NCBI GenBank assembly: GCA_963846575.1
Contig: CAWJWJ010000001.1
Coordinates: 1,088,001 to 1,152,000, forward strand
Direction of reading: 5' to 3'
Origin: an uncultured Nitrospiraceae bacterium
Lineage (GTDB): Bacteria > Nitrospirota > Nitrospiria > Nitrospirales > Nitrospiraceae
Length of the DNA: 64,000 nucleotides
The position numbers are program-made. This document shows positions 9,001-30,000 of the stretch, in pieces. Numbering within the stretch: position 1 is the first letter of the stretch; each line of letters begins with the position of its first letter.

Positions 9001-12000
9001 GCTGCTCGTATCGACTCGCGATGCTGACGGTCTCTTCCTCTTTCAGGAGTTCCAGTTCATCGCTCGCAACCGGAGAGGCCATAAATTCCGGTGTCTCCAT
9101 GACGGACGTTTCGGCCAGTGCGCCGGTGGCCAGTCCGACCGCCAGCAGCGGCGCCAGTAACGGATGCTGCATCCGGATGAATTCAGTCATCACCAGCATG
9201 TCCCGGAACTCGCATCGGGCTTCACCACCAGGCTACCTGTGACCCGGCCGAGCGTTGGTCTCGCCTTCCCAGTGCCCCCGCTGTCCCGCCGGTGATGTCC
9301 GGACTCAGCCGGTTATGCGGCCGGAAACCCAGGCCCGGTAGCGGCACCACCTTGTCGGTGTTCATGCTGAGGGAGACCGCCGGTCCGCTGCTCCCGCTGG
9401 CGTGCCGGATGCCAGGCGAGACAAGTCACCGGTCGTGGAGGCAACGGGTATGACGCTGTCTCGTTGTAAATTGCACATAAAGACGGTGGCGCACCGGTGG
9501 CTGAGTCAGTTGGAGGTGTGCCGCGACCATGAGGATGACACGCCGAAGGTCGACCGCAGACCATCAGCGGGAGTGGTCTCGATGATGGTGAGGACAGCGC
9601 GTAGGGGAGCGACGGGTTGTTCGCGGCCCGTGGCGGCGCCGACCCCCTGTCCTCGAGGGAAGATAGGCTCCGGGCGCGCCTGTCGCGTGATGCGGCGGAA
9701 ACAGGCTGTGGTTCGTCACGGGCCGGAGTGGGGAGAGTGCCAGTCAAGATTAGCTACCCTCCTCGCTGGAGGAGCTCACTCGTCGATGTAGTGCTTCTAT
9801 CCGGCAGGGAACGGATTTATGAGTCATTTCATGGGGAGGACCATAACTGGCGCCGGTTGCTCTGACCCCGCTGTATGTGGGTTGGTACGGCATCGTGTAC
9901 TCTCGCCGCCATTCACAAAATGGTTGGAATATGTCCGCACACATCGGGTCTACGGGTTCACAAGGACTCTCGCAAAAGACGTGCTTAACGGGGTGGGCAG
10001 AGGCAGGCAAGGGGGGGGCGAAATGTACAGGAATCCACGCGATTCCTATGCAGTTCGTGGACGGGGGGATTGCTGAGAAGTATCTTTGTGCTAAGCGCGT
10101 ATCTGAGTAGATACAGGCTGTATTTCTTCAGATACAGGCATCTGAACAGCCTTGCCCGCGCGGGGCCGACCGGGCCTGAGGTTTTGAAGCCGGGGTGCGA
10201 AGGGTCGGCCGTTCCTCGACTCAAGGTCCTGCAGGAGATCCTCGAGCGCCGCCGAGATGAGACCAGCCATGGTGCTCCCGGTCGTCCAGTAGGCGGCATC
10301 GCGGACCCGTTCCAAAAGATCGGTCGGCAGACTCACGGTCATTCGCTGGCGCTTCGGGCTTCTCAGGTAGACAAATCGGTTCATGGTGCGACTCCTTCTG
10401 AAGGAGATGGGGCGGACACGCGAAGCGTCTCTTTTGTGTTCTCAGAACACCAGGGCCGCGTGGTCCCGCTGCCCATCGGAGTTGTGTGTGTGCTCAGGTG
10501 CCTCTGTGAGAAGCGTGGATGTCGGTTGGCCGTGCGGCGCTCCCTTTTCGAGCCGCGATAAATAGAAGCGCCAGCATTGCACTCATTCCAATTAATAGGC
10601 CGCCCATGACTAGTTCCATCTCAGCTCCTTTCGCTCGTGTGAGCAGTGCCGGCGTCTGCACGTATGATACGTTCGACACCAGCAACTGCCGTGCCATTCC
10701 CTTCGCACTCACAACCTGCGCCATATGTGTAAAGATTCTGAGCAGTTCGAGTCGCGGTGAAATGGCAAGGAGGTCGATTCCAGTGCAATGGGAGGCGATC
10801 GTCTCGAATAACTGTATCGGATCAGATGCTAGGGTGTATCTGATTCGATAGCATCAGGCAGCTGTGCGGCGGGCGAGGAATGATCAGGACTTGTCCCGGC
10901 GACCGGTAACGGCCCGTTACCCCGGCAGGTCAACGCCGGTCTGGTTGAGCAGGTGATCAAGCATCCGGCGCAACGTCTGCTGATCGTCCCCCTGTTCGAT
11001 CAGTTCGAGCAGGCAGGAAACGGCGTCATACCACAGGCCCGAATCGGAATAGCGGAAGATCGATTCCCTGTTGCACGCGGTCCATGTGCAAGGCATGTCG
11101 AGTGTGCAGGCTTCATCGAAAGAAAGTCGCTCGATCACCCCGCCAGCAACCACGTCTCGTGACGGCCGATCCGGATCCACGACCAAGGTCACAAACCACC
11201 GATAGGCTTCCTGCTCCTTGAACTCTACCCCATAGTCCCGGGGCCTGGTGCAGTGGATCCCAGGGCCCACAGGAGCAGGTATCGATTGCTCAAGAATGGG
11301 ACGAAGGCCGCGGGCATCCACCACCGTGACCGTAATAGGCCGGGAGGAACGCGTGGAGAGATACCAACAGAGGGCCGGATCGTTCTTGACCGTGTAGGCG
11401 ACATGATCCGGAACCAGGGCGATGAGCTGGGGCGTGTCCGTCTCGGTGCCTCTGCTCGCTCCGCCTATCCGCGCTCGCGGCCCTGGGTCCTTCCTGGGTT
11501 TATACAGAGGCACGCGCGGATCAGGCGGAGGCGCCACTTCCGCGGCATGACCGGAGGACATGGTCAGAGGAAGCCAGACTGAGCCATGCCATGACATCAG
11601 GGACGTGACAGTCACCACAATCACGAAAGAGAATCTGACGTAGTTCATATTGCCCTCGCTCAGGGCTCCACTCGCCCTGCGTATCCCATCAGTGCCGGCG
11701 GGCATGCGTTTGAGCCAGGTCCCATTCTGCCACTTCGTGCAGACCGACTTGCTTCAGGAGCGCCGCACGCTGTTTGTGCAACGTCGCATCCGCCGGATCA
11801 GACTCGATCAGCTCGCTTAGACAGGCCATCGCATCGTACCAAAAGCCTTTGTCCGCACTCACCATCACCGCCTCTTTGGTACAGGTGGTCATGGCGCCCA
11901 GTACCAGGCACTCGCTGAATTCACAGCGTTCGATCATCCCTCCCGTCACGATATCCCGTGACGGAGAGTCGGCGTCTTTAATCACCGAAATATACCAGCG

Positions 12001-27000: not shown

Positions 27001-30000
27001 CGGAGAGACGAGCCGATGCTCGGGTGAAGCTCGCCGGCCGGGTTTTCGCCAGCTATAAGCGCCAGGGGGCTCATCTGCCACCCGCCGGGTTCGGTCGGGA
27101 GCATGTCGCGCCCGGCCACCACCAGGCTGCTGAGTTGGCCGTTCGCCTGCGCCGCACAACGTTGGGTGAGAAGTTGCTGGACCGACAACGGGCGTTGCGA
27201 CAGCGCCGCCAAGGTGCCGCTCAGGTTGGAAATCGGCGATTGAATGTTGACGGCGCCGCTCAGGCCATACTGCGATGAGGCACTGACGACACTGGTCTGG
27301 TCGGCGAGAAATGTCCCCGCCACGATGTTGATGTTGCCGCCCTGGCCCTGCACGGCCTGAGCGAGCACTTGACTGTTCTGAAGCGTGACGACGGCAGGGT
27401 CGATGAGGATGTTGCCGCCCGCTGTGTTAGGGCCACCCTGAACCGACGTGCTGAGTTCGCTGTTGACCAGTCTGATGGAATCCGTTGCTTGAATGGTAAT
27501 GTTGCCGCCGCTGGCATGGGTGGCCTGGGTCGTGATAGAGCCATTGTTGCTGAGAAACTGAGCGCCTGCATTGATGGAAATGTTGCCGGCGTTGGCCGGG
27601 CCGGTGCTGTTAGCGACCATGGACCCTCCGGCACTCAGGCTGACCGCCTGATTCGCCAGGACCGAGATTTGCCCGCCCGTGGCAGTGGGTTCAGGTCCCG
27701 ACGTTGAGGCGGAAAGAGTGCCGCCATTCTGAATGGTGACGGTTTGCGCTGAAAGATTCAGACTGCCGCCTGCTCCGGCTCCTTGCGTATCGGTGAAGAT
27801 CCCGCTGCCGCCTCCATCGATGACAATCGATTGCGAAGGCCCAGTAGGGCTTTGGACCGTGATCGTGCCGCCCGCACCGGTTGGGATTTCTCTCGGCCGG
27901 TTCGGAGACGCAAATGGATTCGGGGTACTTCCGCTTCGTAGCTGGCCACCCGTAGTGAGTTGCAGGTTATCCGTGAAGAGAGTGAGCCTTCCTCCCTGGC
28001 CGGACCGGTGAGTCTCGCTGGTGAGGAAGCTGCCCTCCGTAATGAAAACTTGAGGAGCGGTGACGGTGAGATCCGCTGCCCTGGACGATCGCCAGGCGGT
28101 AGTCGAAATGAGCGAATTGCCTTCGACAGTTAAACGTTCGGAAAGTGTGATCGTGATGCTGTCTGGTATCTGCGCAGTCAGGTTGCTGCCCTCGATCAGG
28201 GAGCCTTCCCGAAGGATCAGGTTTTTTGCAGTGATCTCTATCTTTCCGAACGATCCAGTCGTGGTCTCCGCCACGTTGAAGACAGTTCCGCCTTGGCCCA
28301 GCAGAATGTCGCCGTTTGGCGCGTTCAAGCTGATGTTTCCAGTGTTGCCGGTACCAGAACTTCTATTTGGAGTACTTGATTCAGCCAAGCGGTTGGCTTG
28401 TGAGGTTATAATGGGGGCGCTCAGCAGCATATCGCCCTGGGTACTGCGTCAGTTCGATATGGCCCGGCATTTCCCGCCGCACCCTCGGAGCTGGTCGCGA
28501 TTCGTCCGAAATTTTCTGTTTCGAGGTTTTTGACCGTTGTCACCTTGATATTGCCGCCGTCGCCCGTACTGATGGTCCCGGTTTCGAGGTGGGAGTGGTC
28601 TTTCATGAGCATGGAATCGACTTCCAACGTGATATTCCCGCTCTTGCCCCCTTCGCTCAGGGGCGCCACGTTGGACCTGATGCCGGTAAACGGTAATGTC
28701 TCAAAGTCAAGAATTCCTGCCAGCTCGATGTGATCGGCTCGTATACGCACGCCGCCCGATCTGACTCCTGGCGATGCCTGTTCGGTCACATTGGTTTCGA
28801 GGACGGCGAGGTTCCGAATCACCACATCCTGGGCCATCTGAATGTCGATGCCTGTCCCGGTTTGAGCCGACTGGCCGGGAGCCGGACCGGTCACGTTGGC
28901 CGAGATCGTCGAGTCATCCACGACAAAACTGCCGCCTCGAATACGAATCGTCCCGCCGTCATACCCGCTGCTGTCGATAACCGATTGTTGCGAAACTTGA
29001 ATTGTGCCGAGCGCTCCGAAGGTCTGTCCGTTTGCATTGGGAGCCTGCTCCAGGGTGCCCGCGAGAATTTCTCCCTGCGAGGCAACACTCGCCAGAGAAA
29101 TCGCGCCGGCGGGCGCCGTGAGCCGGGCTGGCTGCGCCGAGCCATCGGCAAGGGTGCCGGATTCGATGGTGATGTTCCCACCGACCAACGAGATATTTTC
29201 ACCAGGGAGGACCGTGAGTTCTCCTCCCTGGACGGTAATCGCACCGGGGTTCGAGCCCAGGAATCCGAATGCGGCGACGGGCGCACTGGAGATGGAAGCG
29301 TCTTGCGTGCCCGGAAGGGCGTTGAATCGTGCGCCATCTGCAAGCCGAAGATAGTCAGCGGTCGTGAAGCTCACCGATCCACCGACATTCAGTGTCGCGG
29401 TCGGCCCGAACACGATCCCGGCCGGATTCATTAAGAACAGATTGGCGTTGCCGAAACCGGTAGTCTGGATCGTGCCGAAGATATTGGACGGATTCCCGCC
29501 GGTGACACGCCCGAGAATGTTGGAGGTGGGGAGCGCTGTTTCGTTGAGAAAGTTCGCAACGTTGTTCGTGGGGACGCCGAACTCGCCGAAGCTGTGAAAG
29601 AGATTCTGCCCGCTGGCCGGCCTCGTACCGCCGGTGATGTTGTAGGTGTTTCCGGCCTGGATCACAGTGGTGCCCAGGTTGCCGGTACCAGGGGTCGAGG
29701 TGATGGCGGGAGTCACTTGCGCCAGGCTGGCGGACCACTGCGAGGCAACTAGGACGAAGGTGAAACCTAACATCACCCCTGATGGGGGAAAGAGGGACGT
29801 TCGAAACAGCGTACGTATCATGGAGACGCTCGTTTCTGCTCGTGCCTCGGTGCGACCTGTGCCGAGCCTGAGCGAGCCGATAGACTCTAAACCAGCCCCT
29901 GGAGCCTTCTTCCGCCTATGTACGAGGCGGGAGAAGGCTACATCCAACTAAATGCTCTTGTCCAGGGGCCCAGGACACCAGGTCTTGAGCTTAAATTCTG

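Follow-up and report, generated by a model that had tools for sequence, protein, structure and literature searches.

The minus strand of a Nitrospira genome carries a cluster of ORFs for two DUF928 proteins, an exported TPR-CHAT protein predicted to be a protease, a TpsB outer-membrane transporter and four paralogous TpsA exoproteins. We tentatively read this cluster as a tether-and-release device resembling that of CdrA and LapG and built on a different protease, in which DUF928 would be a substrate or decoy directed at the active site; we put the probability of this reading at roughly 0.45. It draws on a conserved gene neighbourhood, on a two-cysteine tail shared by nearly all TpsA proteins of the module, and on co-folds that place this tail and an arginine-bearing loop of DUF928 on the protease.

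Gene content of the locus

The features of the cluster are given below, with positions counted along the window, the whole stretch of 64,000 nucleotides that was analysed.

10917..11705, minus strand: DUF928 paralogue a, 262-aa ORF (Pfam PF06051, 90.7 bits)
11448..11480, minus strand: Arg-loop motif of DUF928a, PRARIGGASRG (sequence and family conservation)
11689..12480, minus strand: DUF928 paralogue b, 263-aa ORF from TTG (Pfam PF06051, 120.2 bits)
12247..12279, minus strand: Arg-loop motif of DUF928b, PRARIAGNLRG (R51 and R57 in 243-aa numbering)
12444..14786, minus strand: exported TPR-CHAT, predicted protease, 780 aa (CHAT, 192.5 bits, and TPR families)
12462..13256, minus strand: CHAT catalytic domain, residues 511-775 (Pfam PF12770)
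12711-12713, minus strand: Cys692 of the CHAT catalytic pair
12849-12851, minus strand: His646 of the CHAT catalytic pair
13665..14543, minus strand: TPR groove, residues 82-374, predicted binding site of the TpsA tail motif (co-fold interface)
14787..16559, minus strand: TpsB outer-membrane transporter, 590 aa (Pfam POTRA_2, ShlB, Omp85)
16598..19534, minus strand: TpsA1, 978 aa, intact (Pfam TPS, 145.7 bits; NCBIfam adhes_NPXG)
16601..16987, minus strand: C-terminal tail of TpsA1, residues 850-978 (with Cys893 and Cys976)
16607-16609, minus strand: tail cysteine Cys976 of TpsA1
16754..16813, minus strand: predicted docking motif GRDALPAEPGGWLLSPPVHV, TpsA1 residues 908-927 (co-fold interface; conserved in alignment A6, whose rows were chosen for carrying the Arg of the tail motif)
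16856-16858, minus strand: tail cysteine Cys893 of TpsA1
19573..23343, minus strand: TpsA2, 1256-aa ORF, intact, with a TpsA1-type tail (TPS domain)
23277..26859, minus strand: TpsA3, frameshifted (ORFs 25795-26859 and 23277-26384)
26898..29947, minus strand: TpsA4, split (ORFs 28421-29947, N-terminal with the TPS domain, and 26898-28430, C-terminal with the conserved tail)

ORF strands and Pfam matches agree with the gene order and families described in an earlier note on this DNA, and the signal peptides that it listed were recognised by eye as hydrophobic, signal-like N-terminal segments. Both DUF928 proteins score above the family cut-off of 26 bits, and the CHAT domain above its cut-off of 24 bits. 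The transporter matches POTRA_2 (76.7 bits), ShlB (93.2 bits) and Omp85 (47.7 bits), as a type Vb TpsB does. TPS domains (PF05860) were matched at 118-147 bits in four ORFs (16598-19534, 19573-23343, 25795-26859 and 28421-29947), and the match to TIGR01901 adhes_NPXG likewise assigns the exoproteins to the type Vb TpsA class. TpsA3 has a one-base frameshift near 26386, seen in a TPS profile that spans two frames and in the DNA alignment to TpsA2, and TpsA4 is interrupted near 28430, leaving two ORFs. The earlier count of five exoprotein genes or fragments does take in broken pieces, but the number is better given as four paralogues, two of which (TpsA3 and TpsA4) are broken.

In the TPR-CHAT protein, the hydrophobic N-terminal segment ends in AVA-Q. 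H646 (HIATHG) and C692 (SACQTG) are unchanged in all 38 homologues aligned and form the catalytic pair of a CHAT domain. The host is a nitrite-oxidising Nitrospira; the gene set is conserved and unstudied, and our literature search found no paper on a module of DUF928, TPR-CHAT, TpsB and TpsA.

Conservation of the module

DUF928 is present in 47 of 301 Nitrospirota genomes and CHAT in 94, including 46 of the 47 that are DUF928-positive. Among the matches listed, from which 36 weaker CHAT matches were left out, CHAT lies within 5 kb of at least 46 of 53 DUF928 loci and is directly adjacent on the same strand in at least 35 of the 53. The reported neighbourhood of DUF928 and CHAT is thus seen in an independent sample. 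Forty related loci, picked for having CHAT near DUF928, contain CHAT in 40 cases, TpsA in 38 and TpsB in 35; all four kinds of gene are present in 32 and collinear in 26, bearing out the view that they form one conserved module. DUF928 directly follows CHAT in cyanobacteria as well, and one relative (G252) has up to three DUF928 copies. A second module, devoid of DUF928, had been described on contig 2 of this genome, and we found it there as a TpsB, a 420-aa TpsA and an 826-aa TPR-CHAT.

The TpsA tail and its predicted docking on the protease

In nearly all TpsA proteins of the module, the C-terminal 130 or so residues form a conserved tail with two cysteines 67-117 residues apart and the motif LPxEPGGWLxSP. 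Both cysteines are present in 47 of 56 TpsA C-termini (fragments included) and are the sole two of their ORF in 15; in TpsA1, Cys893 and Cys976 are the only cysteines of the protein. The same type of tail is found in the DUF928-less module of contig 2 and in two cyanobacterial plasmid TpsAs. Judged by this sequence pattern, the tail cysteines are most likely joined in a disulfide loop. The Arg of the motif is missing altogether from three two-cysteine tails (one in L073 and two in L077) and so cannot serve as a cleavage site in all tails.

A co-fold of TPR-CHAT residues 36-780 with TpsA1 residues 850-978, which used alignments built in this analysis, gave ipSAE values of 0.78, 0.77 and 0.77, against 0.00 for the best of three controls; 116 of 157 solved complexes reach this mark, as do 2 of 215 mismatched pairs, and the tool's own statistics show 7 of 44 blind neighbour pairs passing a co-fold of this kind. 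At least 52% of contacts recur between runs; the pLDDT of the partner is 40-41, with most of the tail placed at low confidence. TPR residues 82-374 are predicted to contact residues 59-78 of the tail fragment, so that the motif and the Arg within it sit on the TPR domain, away from His646 and Cys692. Since the motif lies in the TPR groove and not in the catalytic site, the model supports docking and does not support cleavage. Of the earlier claim that CHAT matures or releases the TpsA exoproteins, the physical tie is supported (0.77 versus 0.00), with the predicted contact at the TPR groove.

The TPR region is similar to TPRs that bind peptides in LGN/Pins, kinesin light chain and Rap/NprR; solved structures include many TPR-peptide complexes, and likeness to them may therefore supply part of the score. 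Conservation is 0.59 for the TPR contact residues versus 0.62 for the rest of the TPR region. Covariation between W70 and the groove does not rise above the lineage background (4 contacts among 16 disjoint positions, P = 0.17).

DUF928 as a predicted second partner of the protease

The two DUF928 proteins are the only copies in the genome and share 39% identity. An internal ATG 19 codons into DUF928a may be its true start; the database form of DUF928b has 243 aa, starts from the ATG at 12420 and is a 100% match to a 243-aa protein (P0004). The AF2 model of DUF928b (pLDDT 89) consists of an Ig-like sandwich and a helical bundle, with a pLDDT of about 72 for the Arg loop in the monomer. Its best structural match is the C-terminal domain of MtxA from Magnetospirillum gryphiswaldense (PDB 4z29; Foldseek E 3.4e-5, TM 0.55 on the target), in which, according to the excerpted text of PMC4439547, an Ig-like domain is followed by TPR-like helices as in DUF928. 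The match is structural alone, as MtxA has no sequence similarity to DUF928, and the DUF928 profile had 0 PDB hits at E up to 1.

The N-terminal motif of DUF928 had been called invariant. Among 130 sequences (the two window proteins and 128 representatives at 50% identity), P48 is kept in 122, R51 in 117, G54 in 113, R57 in 126 and G58 in 107, whereas at position 49, the first Arg of PRAR, no residue attains 70%. The motif is thus invariant only in part, with family-wide conservation of R51, G54 and R57 but not of the first Arg, and, going by these sequences, it is better written R-x-G-G-x-x-R-G than P-R-A-R. Conservation of the loop extends across 3,897 representative clusters. In the DUF928-CHAT co-fold of the earlier note (0.77 versus 0.02 for controls), the Arg loop is predicted at the CHAT active site, and the interface reaches beyond the loop to DUF928 residues 97-111 and 141-158.

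CHASE2 cyclases are fused to DUF928 in 7 of 10 long homologues, and zf-HC2 anti-sigma factors in two proteins (P0203 and P0269). In these fusions the Arg loop is retained, following a membrane segment and immediately preceding the DUF928 domain. In 5 of the 40 related loci, a CHASE2 cyclase is also encoded between CHAT and DUF928. A single CHAT-DUF928 fusion was found (P0401), apparently a read-through between neighbouring genes. In this genome both copies are unfused and without an adjacent signalling partner; no CHASE2 or anti-sigma gene was found near DUF928, and the three CHASE2 genes lie elsewhere, on contig 2. DUF928 had been proposed as a pseudo-substrate inhibitor or first substrate; its links to CHASE2 cyclases and anti-sigma factors favour a substrate or receiver of the protease over a pure inhibitor.

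Proposed mechanism and alternatives

The observations of the earlier note thus hold for gene content and in part for motif invariance, with the exoprotein number revised to four, and its interpretation is partly supported: the module and the tie between protease and exoprotein stand, with a different predicted contact and a better-fitting analogue than SphB1. Under the tether-and-release reading, the locus would encode one envelope machine. From known family roles, TpsB would export the beta-helical TpsA filaments over the outer membrane, and the disulfide loop suggested by the tail sequences would stay periplasmic, most likely tethering the filament to the pore as in HMW1, HxuA and CdrA. The tail would be the docking site of the exported TPR-CHAT cysteine protease, whose TPR groove is predicted to hold LPxEPGGWLxSP; the protease would then most likely cut the tail and shed the filament, by analogy with LapG and CdrA. 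DUF928 would be a periplasmic Ig-like and helical protein with a flexible R-x-G-G-x-x-R-G loop preceding the folded domain; this loop, modelled as entering the active site, may be the second partner of the protease, making DUF928 a cleavable substrate or a decoy that competes with the TpsA tail. At sister loci, DUF928 may relay the action of the protease to an anti-sigma factor or a CHASE2 cyclase.

The two co-folds, with the tail motif on the TPR domain off the active site and the DUF928 loop predicted within it, would also suit a system for signalling only, in which the tail serves as a platform to recruit or activate the protease, whose sole substrate would be DUF928; a cut in the Arg loop would free the DUF928 domain or its N-terminal peptide as a signal of the state of the surface filament. 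The anti-sigma and CHASE2 fusions place the loop between membrane segment and domain, where a site-1 cut would fall, and DdvA is a precedent for a periplasmic TPR-CHAT in an anti-sigma pathway (PMC11506125, in excerpt). We nevertheless think this unlikely: CHAT-TpsA-TpsB modules without DUF928 exist, on contig 2 and as implied by 94 versus 47 of 301 genomes, so that the protease there needs another substrate, and the window has no adjacent signalling partner. Similarly improbable in our estimate is a LapD-like pseudo-substrate inhibitor or sequestering partner, by which DUF928 would block the CHAT site uncut, protect the periplasm and time the shedding. Its predicted interface beyond the loop exceeds what a simple substrate would need, the folded domain is highly conserved, and the gene is duplicated in tandem here and reaches three copies in G252; yet the fusions to anti-sigma factors and cyclase output ends fit a cleaved receiver better. 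Metacaspases and separase are Arg-directed caspase-fold enzymes, and the two nearly invariant, Gly-flanked Arg of the loop resemble a site for such an enzyme, which also speaks against an uncut inhibitor.

A further alternative is obligate maturation, with CHAT removing the TpsA tail once and without regulation, like the FhaB prodomain, DUF928 being an unrelated neighbour and both co-folds over-read. The passing of 7 of 44 blind neighbour pairs, the low confidence of most of the tail, and contact covariation and conservation no higher than background are in line with it. We regard it as very unlikely, given that DUF928 directly follows CHAT on the same strand in at least 35 of 53 loci and also in cyanobacteria, that controls of both co-folds scored 0.00-0.02, and that the loop is so widely conserved.

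Comparison with known systems

In Pseudomonas aeruginosa, a C-terminal, Cys-containing periplasmic module of CdrA sits in the TpsB pore and holds the adhesin on the cell; the periplasmic cysteine protease LapG acts on this tail, and a further protein controls LapG (PMC13405001, PMC4694147 and PMC5422565, all in excerpt). The locus resembles CdrA/CdrB-LapG-LapD in its probable combination of a TpsA tail with cysteines, a periplasmic cysteine protease and a candidate regulator, and two conserved cysteines, as in a Lap-type retention module, occur in 47 of 56 tails. The protease here has a TPR-CHAT caspase fold and is not LapG/BTLCP, a family (PF06035) that gave 0 matches in the genome at 99.93% completeness. 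The tail loop of 67-117 residues carries LPxEPGGW and not TAAG; no TAAG-type di-alanine motif was found in the tails by eye, with PAAG in TpsA3 only, next to the last Cys, and TAGC or ATGC in the other three. The candidate regulator is DUF928 in place of LapD, and where the Lap system is tied to c-di-GMP, the ties here are to CHASE2 cyclases and anti-sigma factors; no GGDEF or EAL domains were found among the window ORFs scanned, though no search aimed at a LapD-type c-di-GMP receptor was made.

The TpsA C-terminus of HMW1/HMW1B and HxuA/HxuB of Haemophilus influenzae is periplasmic, and a disulfide loop locks it in the TpsB pore (excerpt of PMC5422565, citing Buscher 2006). Those systems differ in being without a described dedicated protease or DUF928 partner, and the tail here is longer, with a predicted TPR-binding motif. 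DdvA-DdvS of Myxococcus xanthus employs a periplasmic TPR-CHAT of the separase/craspase type in envelope signalling, and caspase-like cleavage has been proposed to precede intramembrane proteolysis (excerpted text of PMC11506125). DdvA is, however, itself an anti-sigma factor with an incomplete His-Cys site, whereas the TPR-CHAT here is free, exported and has a complete, invariant dyad; only TPR and CHAT families follow its N-terminal signal-like segment, with no cytoplasmic zinc anti-sigma domain joined on by a membrane helix, and in relatives anti-sigma factors are fused to DUF928 instead of CHAT.

In Bordetella pertussis, a dedicated protease, SphB1, matures or releases the TpsA protein FhaB of the FhaB/FhaC pair (PMC5422565, in excerpt). 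SphB1 is a surface-anchored subtilisin autotransporter whose gene lies apart from the TPS locus; the window ORFs scanned gave no match to a subtilisin or autotransporter family. With its periplasmic protease and putatively disulfide-looped periplasmic tail, the module is less well matched by SphB1 and FhaB, the analogue proposed earlier, and by this comparison CdrA/LapG is the better analogue.

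Gene content of the locus

All ORFs of the module are encoded on the minus strand and either overlap slightly or are separated by short gaps, as expected of an operon. An earlier note on this DNA had reported two DUF928 proteins, a TPR-CHAT protease, a TpsB transporter and TPS-type exoproteins on one strand, and ORF prediction combined with Pfam confirms this gene set and its orientation.

Features of the module (window positions, with the evidence in brackets)
10917-11705, minus strand: DUF928a (Pfam)
11689-12480, minus strand: DUF928b (Pfam)
12444-14786, minus strand: TPR-CHAT protease, 780 aa, N-terminal TPR repeats and C-terminal CHAT domain (Pfam)
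14787-16559, minus strand: TpsB transporter (Pfam POTRA_2, ShlB and Omp85)
16598-19534, minus strand: TpsA1, intact (Pfam TPS; pairwise comparison)
19573-23343, minus strand: TpsA2, intact (Pfam TPS; pairwise comparison)
near 26386, minus strand: TpsA3, one-base frameshift (TPS profile split over two frames)
split near 28430, minus strand: TpsA4, two ORFs (stop in each neighboring frame)

The exoproteins had been counted as five genes or fragments; pairwise comparison resolves them into four TpsA paralogues, two of them apparently broken, sharing the TPS domain and some 290 C-terminal residues (59-68% identical). The TPS profile of TpsA3 is spread over two frames because of the frameshift, and the apparent breaks in TpsA3 and TpsA4 reflect either assembly error or the decay of paralogues that are redundant. 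A search of sequencing runs listed no RNA run and one soil metagenome run, which shared a fraction of 0.06 of the sequence words. We rejected the idea that the TpsAs are polymorphic toxins, as Pfam and NCBIfam revealed no toxin family, just TPS and a weak G8 match, and likewise a defense-system reading, since PADLOC returned no family besides a generic TPR match. The catalytic pair of the CHAT domain (His646 and Cys692) is intact and is invariant in 38 of 38 homologues.

Homologues of DUF928b bear Nitrospira names. The two DUF928 genes are the only ones in their genome, and a second set of TpsB, short TpsA and TPR-CHAT genes, without DUF928, is indeed present on contig 2 as previously noticed. 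The genome also has three CHASE2 genes, all distant from both modules.

Conservation of the gene neighborhood

In a sample of 301 Nitrospirota genomes, DUF928 was found in 47 and CHAT in 94, and 46 of the 47 DUF928-positive genomes also contain CHAT. Sixty-two DUF928 matches exceed the family cut-off, and they group into 53 loci. In at least 46 of these, a CHAT match is listed no more than 5 kb away (36 weaker CHAT matches are outside this count), so that the DUF928-CHAT neighborhood described earlier recurs in an independent sample. CHAT is directly upstream of DUF928 on the same strand in at least 35 of the 53. Among the seven loci with no listed CHAT nearby, two are located at the end of a contig, and another two consist of 130-aa fragments. 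One sampled genome (G252:C1:541201-543532) carries three tandem DUF928 genes after a CHAT gene.

Forty CHAT-linked DUF928 loci were taken with larger flanks, and their ORFs were called crudely and labeled by the window's own proteins. CHAT was recovered in 40 of them, TpsA in 38, TpsB in 35 and DUF928 in 36, the four misses being failures of the ORF caller. All four gene kinds occur together in 32 loci and are collinear in the order TpsA-TpsB-CHAT-DUF928 in 26. A CHASE2-cyclase gene sits between CHAT and DUF928 in five of the 40 (checked with Pfam on one such ORF). Six of 14 cyanobacterial plasmid matches were also examined. A CHAT-annotated gene lies beside DUF928 or one gene off in three of the six, and a fourth has an adjacent 1,113-aa TPR protein with a SACQT motif; a CHASE2 gene is adjacent in three and three genes away in a fourth, and three carry a filamentous-hemagglutinin gene.

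Other genes of the window differ in how widely they recur. Just upstream of TpsA4 (29948-30843, minus strand) are two small ORFs of 149 and 147 aa with signal-like N-termini, the first Cys-rich; they match no Pfam or NCBIfam family and have matches in 1-2 of the 40 related loci. At 259-3545 (minus strand) lie an ABC_sub_bind (PF04392) protein and a HAMP-GAF-HisKA kinase, with phmmer matches in 20 and 21 of the 40 loci, respectively, those of the kinase possibly being generic. In a sister genus (g2), ORFs sized like this pair are directly downstream of DUF928, and the pair may be the signaling output of the module in this family. Between it and the module (3601-9199, minus strand) are a REC protein with six PAS domains (1164 aa) and a TonB-dependent receptor (691 aa), the latter with matches in 16 of the 40 loci. 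Farther away, 38989-44312 (minus strand) holds a cluster of radical SAM/SPASM, PCP_red-repeat/Usp and B12-binding radical SAM genes adjoining a UbiE-type methyltransferase, and 45478-47985 (plus strand) encodes an 835-aa UvrA-like ABC ATPase with a UvrA interaction domain.

The C-terminal tail of the TpsA exoproteins

All four TpsAs of the window end in the pattern IQSPxSxLS...LPQRPL...QQRCAAQ...SS[LF]V[VI]AGRDxLPxEPGGW[LQ]xSP, followed by a variable stretch and a final G-C-x-S. We compared 56 TpsA C-termini, fragments included: the four of the window plus 52 found in the 40 loci. A Cys is among the last four residues in 50, another precedes a [GSW][RK]xx[LIVM]P motif by 8-22 residues in 50, and both are present in 47, 67-117 residues apart. 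In 15 tails these two are the only cysteines of the ORF; nearly all of the 15 ORFs are about 900-1,300 residues long, two being shorter C-terminal pieces. Nine tails are exceptional: four are fragments, those of loci L058 and L075 have another shape, and one in L073 and two in L077 are devoid of the Arg and keep both cysteines.

The same tail is found on the TpsA of the DUF928-less module on contig 2. TpsAs of Pseudanabaena and Nostoc plasmids share it in the form C...SFTxxG[KR]GG[LI]...C-x-x. No Pfam family covers the tail. A profile built from it matched 1,077 of 8,000 proteins scored, and the 120 matches listed are TPS-domain proteins or short pieces.

DUF928 and its fusions

DUF928 is a large family, with 3,897 relatives (E up to 0.001) among 1.84 billion representatives of clusters at 50% identity. 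An alignment of 130 sequences (the two window proteins and 128 single-domain representatives out of 150 listed) gives the consensus Y-x-P-P-x-R-G-x-P-x-x-R-[VI]-G-G-G-x-R-G ahead of the Pfam domain. In the numbering of the 243-aa DUF928b, conservation is 119 of 130 for Y40, 120 for P43, 122 for P48, 117 for R51, 113 for G54, 126 for R57 and 107 for G58. The motif had been called invariant; R51, G54 and R57 are conserved, but the first Arg of P-R-A-R (position 49) is clade-specific rather than family-wide. One homologue of 310 aa (P0251) has the motif twice, at residues 54 and 109, before a single DUF928 domain.

The AF2 model of DUF928b (pLDDT 89) consists of an Ig-like sandwich (66-165) followed by a helical bundle (168-242). 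Confidence is lower in the Arg loop (about 72), as expected for an exposed loop. The DUF928 profile has no match among PDB sequences at E up to 1, and the best structural match to the model is the C-terminal Ig-plus-TPR domain of MtxA (4z29, E 3.4e-5).

Ten longer DUF928 homologues comprise seven CHASE2-cyclase-DUF928 fusions, two tandem DUF928 proteins and one in which CHAT runs into DUF928. Among the 150 representatives, P0203 and P0269 join a zf-HC2 anti-sigma domain to DUF928, and P0177 joins PG_binding_1 to it. Wherever the Arg-loop pattern was detected (it missed P0203, P0269 and P0125), it lies immediately before the DUF928 domain and, in membrane-bound fusions, after a membrane-like segment. 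The single CHAT-DUF928 protein (P0401, with a single member) was discarded as a Rosetta stone: the signal-like stretch of DUF928 is retained and the end of the CHAT profile is missing, which makes a read-through from one gene into the next probable.

Predicted docking of the tail on the TPR groove

Co-folding of CHAT residues 36-780 (38-row alignment) with TpsA1 residues 850-978 (47-row alignment) gave ipSAE values of 0.78, 0.77 and 0.77, the best of three controls reaching 0.00. Among solved complexes, 116 of 157 attain the mark used, as do 2 of 215 mismatched pairs; these counts are only approximate here because our own alignments were supplied. The runs have at least 52% of contacts in common, at a partner pLDDT of 40-41. 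On the tail side, the confident interface comprises fragment residues 43-44, 59-78 and 80, including GRDALPAEPGGWLLSPPVHV (TpsA1 908-927), and on the protease side TPR residues 82-374 plus 436-437. The tightest pairs are between tail W919-P923 and CHAT 133, 136-137, 166-173, 191 and 203-210.

The confident contacts are in the TPR groove, and none involve His646 or Cys692. What the model supports, short of demonstrating binding, is that the protease docks on the TpsA tail through that groove; it is silent on cleavage. The earlier proposal that CHAT processes TpsA thus acquires a predicted physical contact between the two proteins but no evidence of cleavage. The TPR region is similar to the peptide-binding TPRs of LGN/Pins, kinesin light chain and Rap/NprR, and the score may be raised by this resemblance to well-studied proteins. 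N210, E331 and C437 never vary, and N169, Y295 and R291 hardly do; as a group, predicted TPR contacts are not conserved above background (0.59 vs 0.62 for the rest of the TPR region). Loci with and without Trp at tail position W70 split cleanly at groove positions 133/173, as they do at 12 non-contact TPR positions, so that this apparent covariation does not exceed the lineage background (P = 0.17).

The mature protease has two cysteines only, the catalytic C692 and C437 (13476-13478, minus strand), the latter invariant in 38 of 38 homologues. In the co-fold, residues 436-437 contact fragment residues 43-44, which are R892 and C893, the first tail Cys. A mixed disulfide between protease and tail through C437 is conceivable on this model.

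The Arg of the tail GRD was considered as the CHAT cleavage site; this is weakened by the three tails without Arg and by the co-fold, which seats the Arg on the TPR domain. Inspection by eye of the tails of the genus itself (window, L043, L055, L059, L062, L063 and L068) shows, in most of them, an Arg located 9-13 residues ahead of the last Cys, frequently within Q-R-G-[GA]-S-D or P-R-R-x, loosely like R-G-S-D in the DUF928b loop. This weakly recurrent Arg is a candidate cleavage site.

Proposed mechanism

TpsB proteins export their TpsA partners from the N- to the C-terminus. The two tail cysteines would form a loop that tethers the filament, and the TPR groove of the protease is predicted to hold the tail motif. 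The docked protease may then cut the tail, shedding the filament. The Arg loop of DUF928, placed at the CHAT active site by the co-fold of the earlier note, which had strong controls, would compete there as substrate or decoy. The two predicted sites are disjoint, one in the TPR groove and the other in the catalytic domain (498-510, 596-602 and 644-648 in that note), so tail and DUF928 could be bound to the protease at once.

Which of the two is the core substrate can be weighed on gene content. CHAT-TpsA-TpsB sets occur without DUF928, and the filament tail is therefore more likely the core substrate and DUF928 an added layer. As to DUF928 itself, we lean somewhat toward a receiver that is cleaved over a pure inhibitor, because the anti-sigma and cyclase fusions hold its loop in a juxtamembrane position. 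The furthest reading, to which we give as a whole a probability of roughly one in five, is that DUF928 is a protease-receiver domain: TPR-CHAT parked on the periplasmic TpsA tail would cut the R-x-G-G-x-x-R-G linker in response to pulling, binding or shedding of the filament, and this cut would supply CHASE2 cyclases and a class of ECF anti-sigma factors with the input that has long been sought for them. If so, this would be a widespread bacterial proteolytic cascade that senses contact or force at the cell surface and relays it to cAMP or transcription.

If the mechanism is true, DUF928 and the exported TPR-CHAT proteases acquire a function, there is an explanation for the tail motif of a large TpsA class, and the module is linked to CHASE2 sensors. 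The residues that the predictions single out are N169, D170, I173 and N210 of the TPR groove, W919-P923 of the tail, and R51 and R57 of DUF928.

Comparison with known systems

The module is real, conserved and unstudied. No literature coupling the CHAT domain with two-partner secretion, CHASE2 or filamentous hemagglutinin was found in a search of literature outside subscription journals, in which the name DUF928 occurs in one paper. The observation of the earlier note holds overall, with corrections; the present analysis adds a survey of Nitrospirota, numbers for the tail architecture, a census of fusions and the prediction that the tail docks in the TPR groove.

SphB1, offered earlier as the analogue through its action on FhaB, fits least well, being a surface subtilisin. 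The architecture of the protease is matched by DdvA, the one published periplasmic TPR-CHAT protein (PMC11506125), but DdvA differs in that it serves as the anti-sigma factor itself and its active site is incomplete. HMW1, HxuA and CdrA have a periplasmic C-terminal anchor with a disulfide loop (PMC5422565, PMC13405001), and judging from the tail cysteines, the module may have the idea of a disulfide anchor in common with HMW1 and HxuA. In its proposed mechanism the module resembles CdrA/CdrB-LapG-LapD, yet it is not a member of that system: its genome has no LapG-family protease and its TpsA tails no TAAG motif, and the window ORFs scanned showed no GGDEF or EAL domain, although no search aimed at a LapD-type receptor was made. 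If the proposed mechanism is true, it represents a second, independently evolved solution to the problem that LapG/LapD solves for CdrA.
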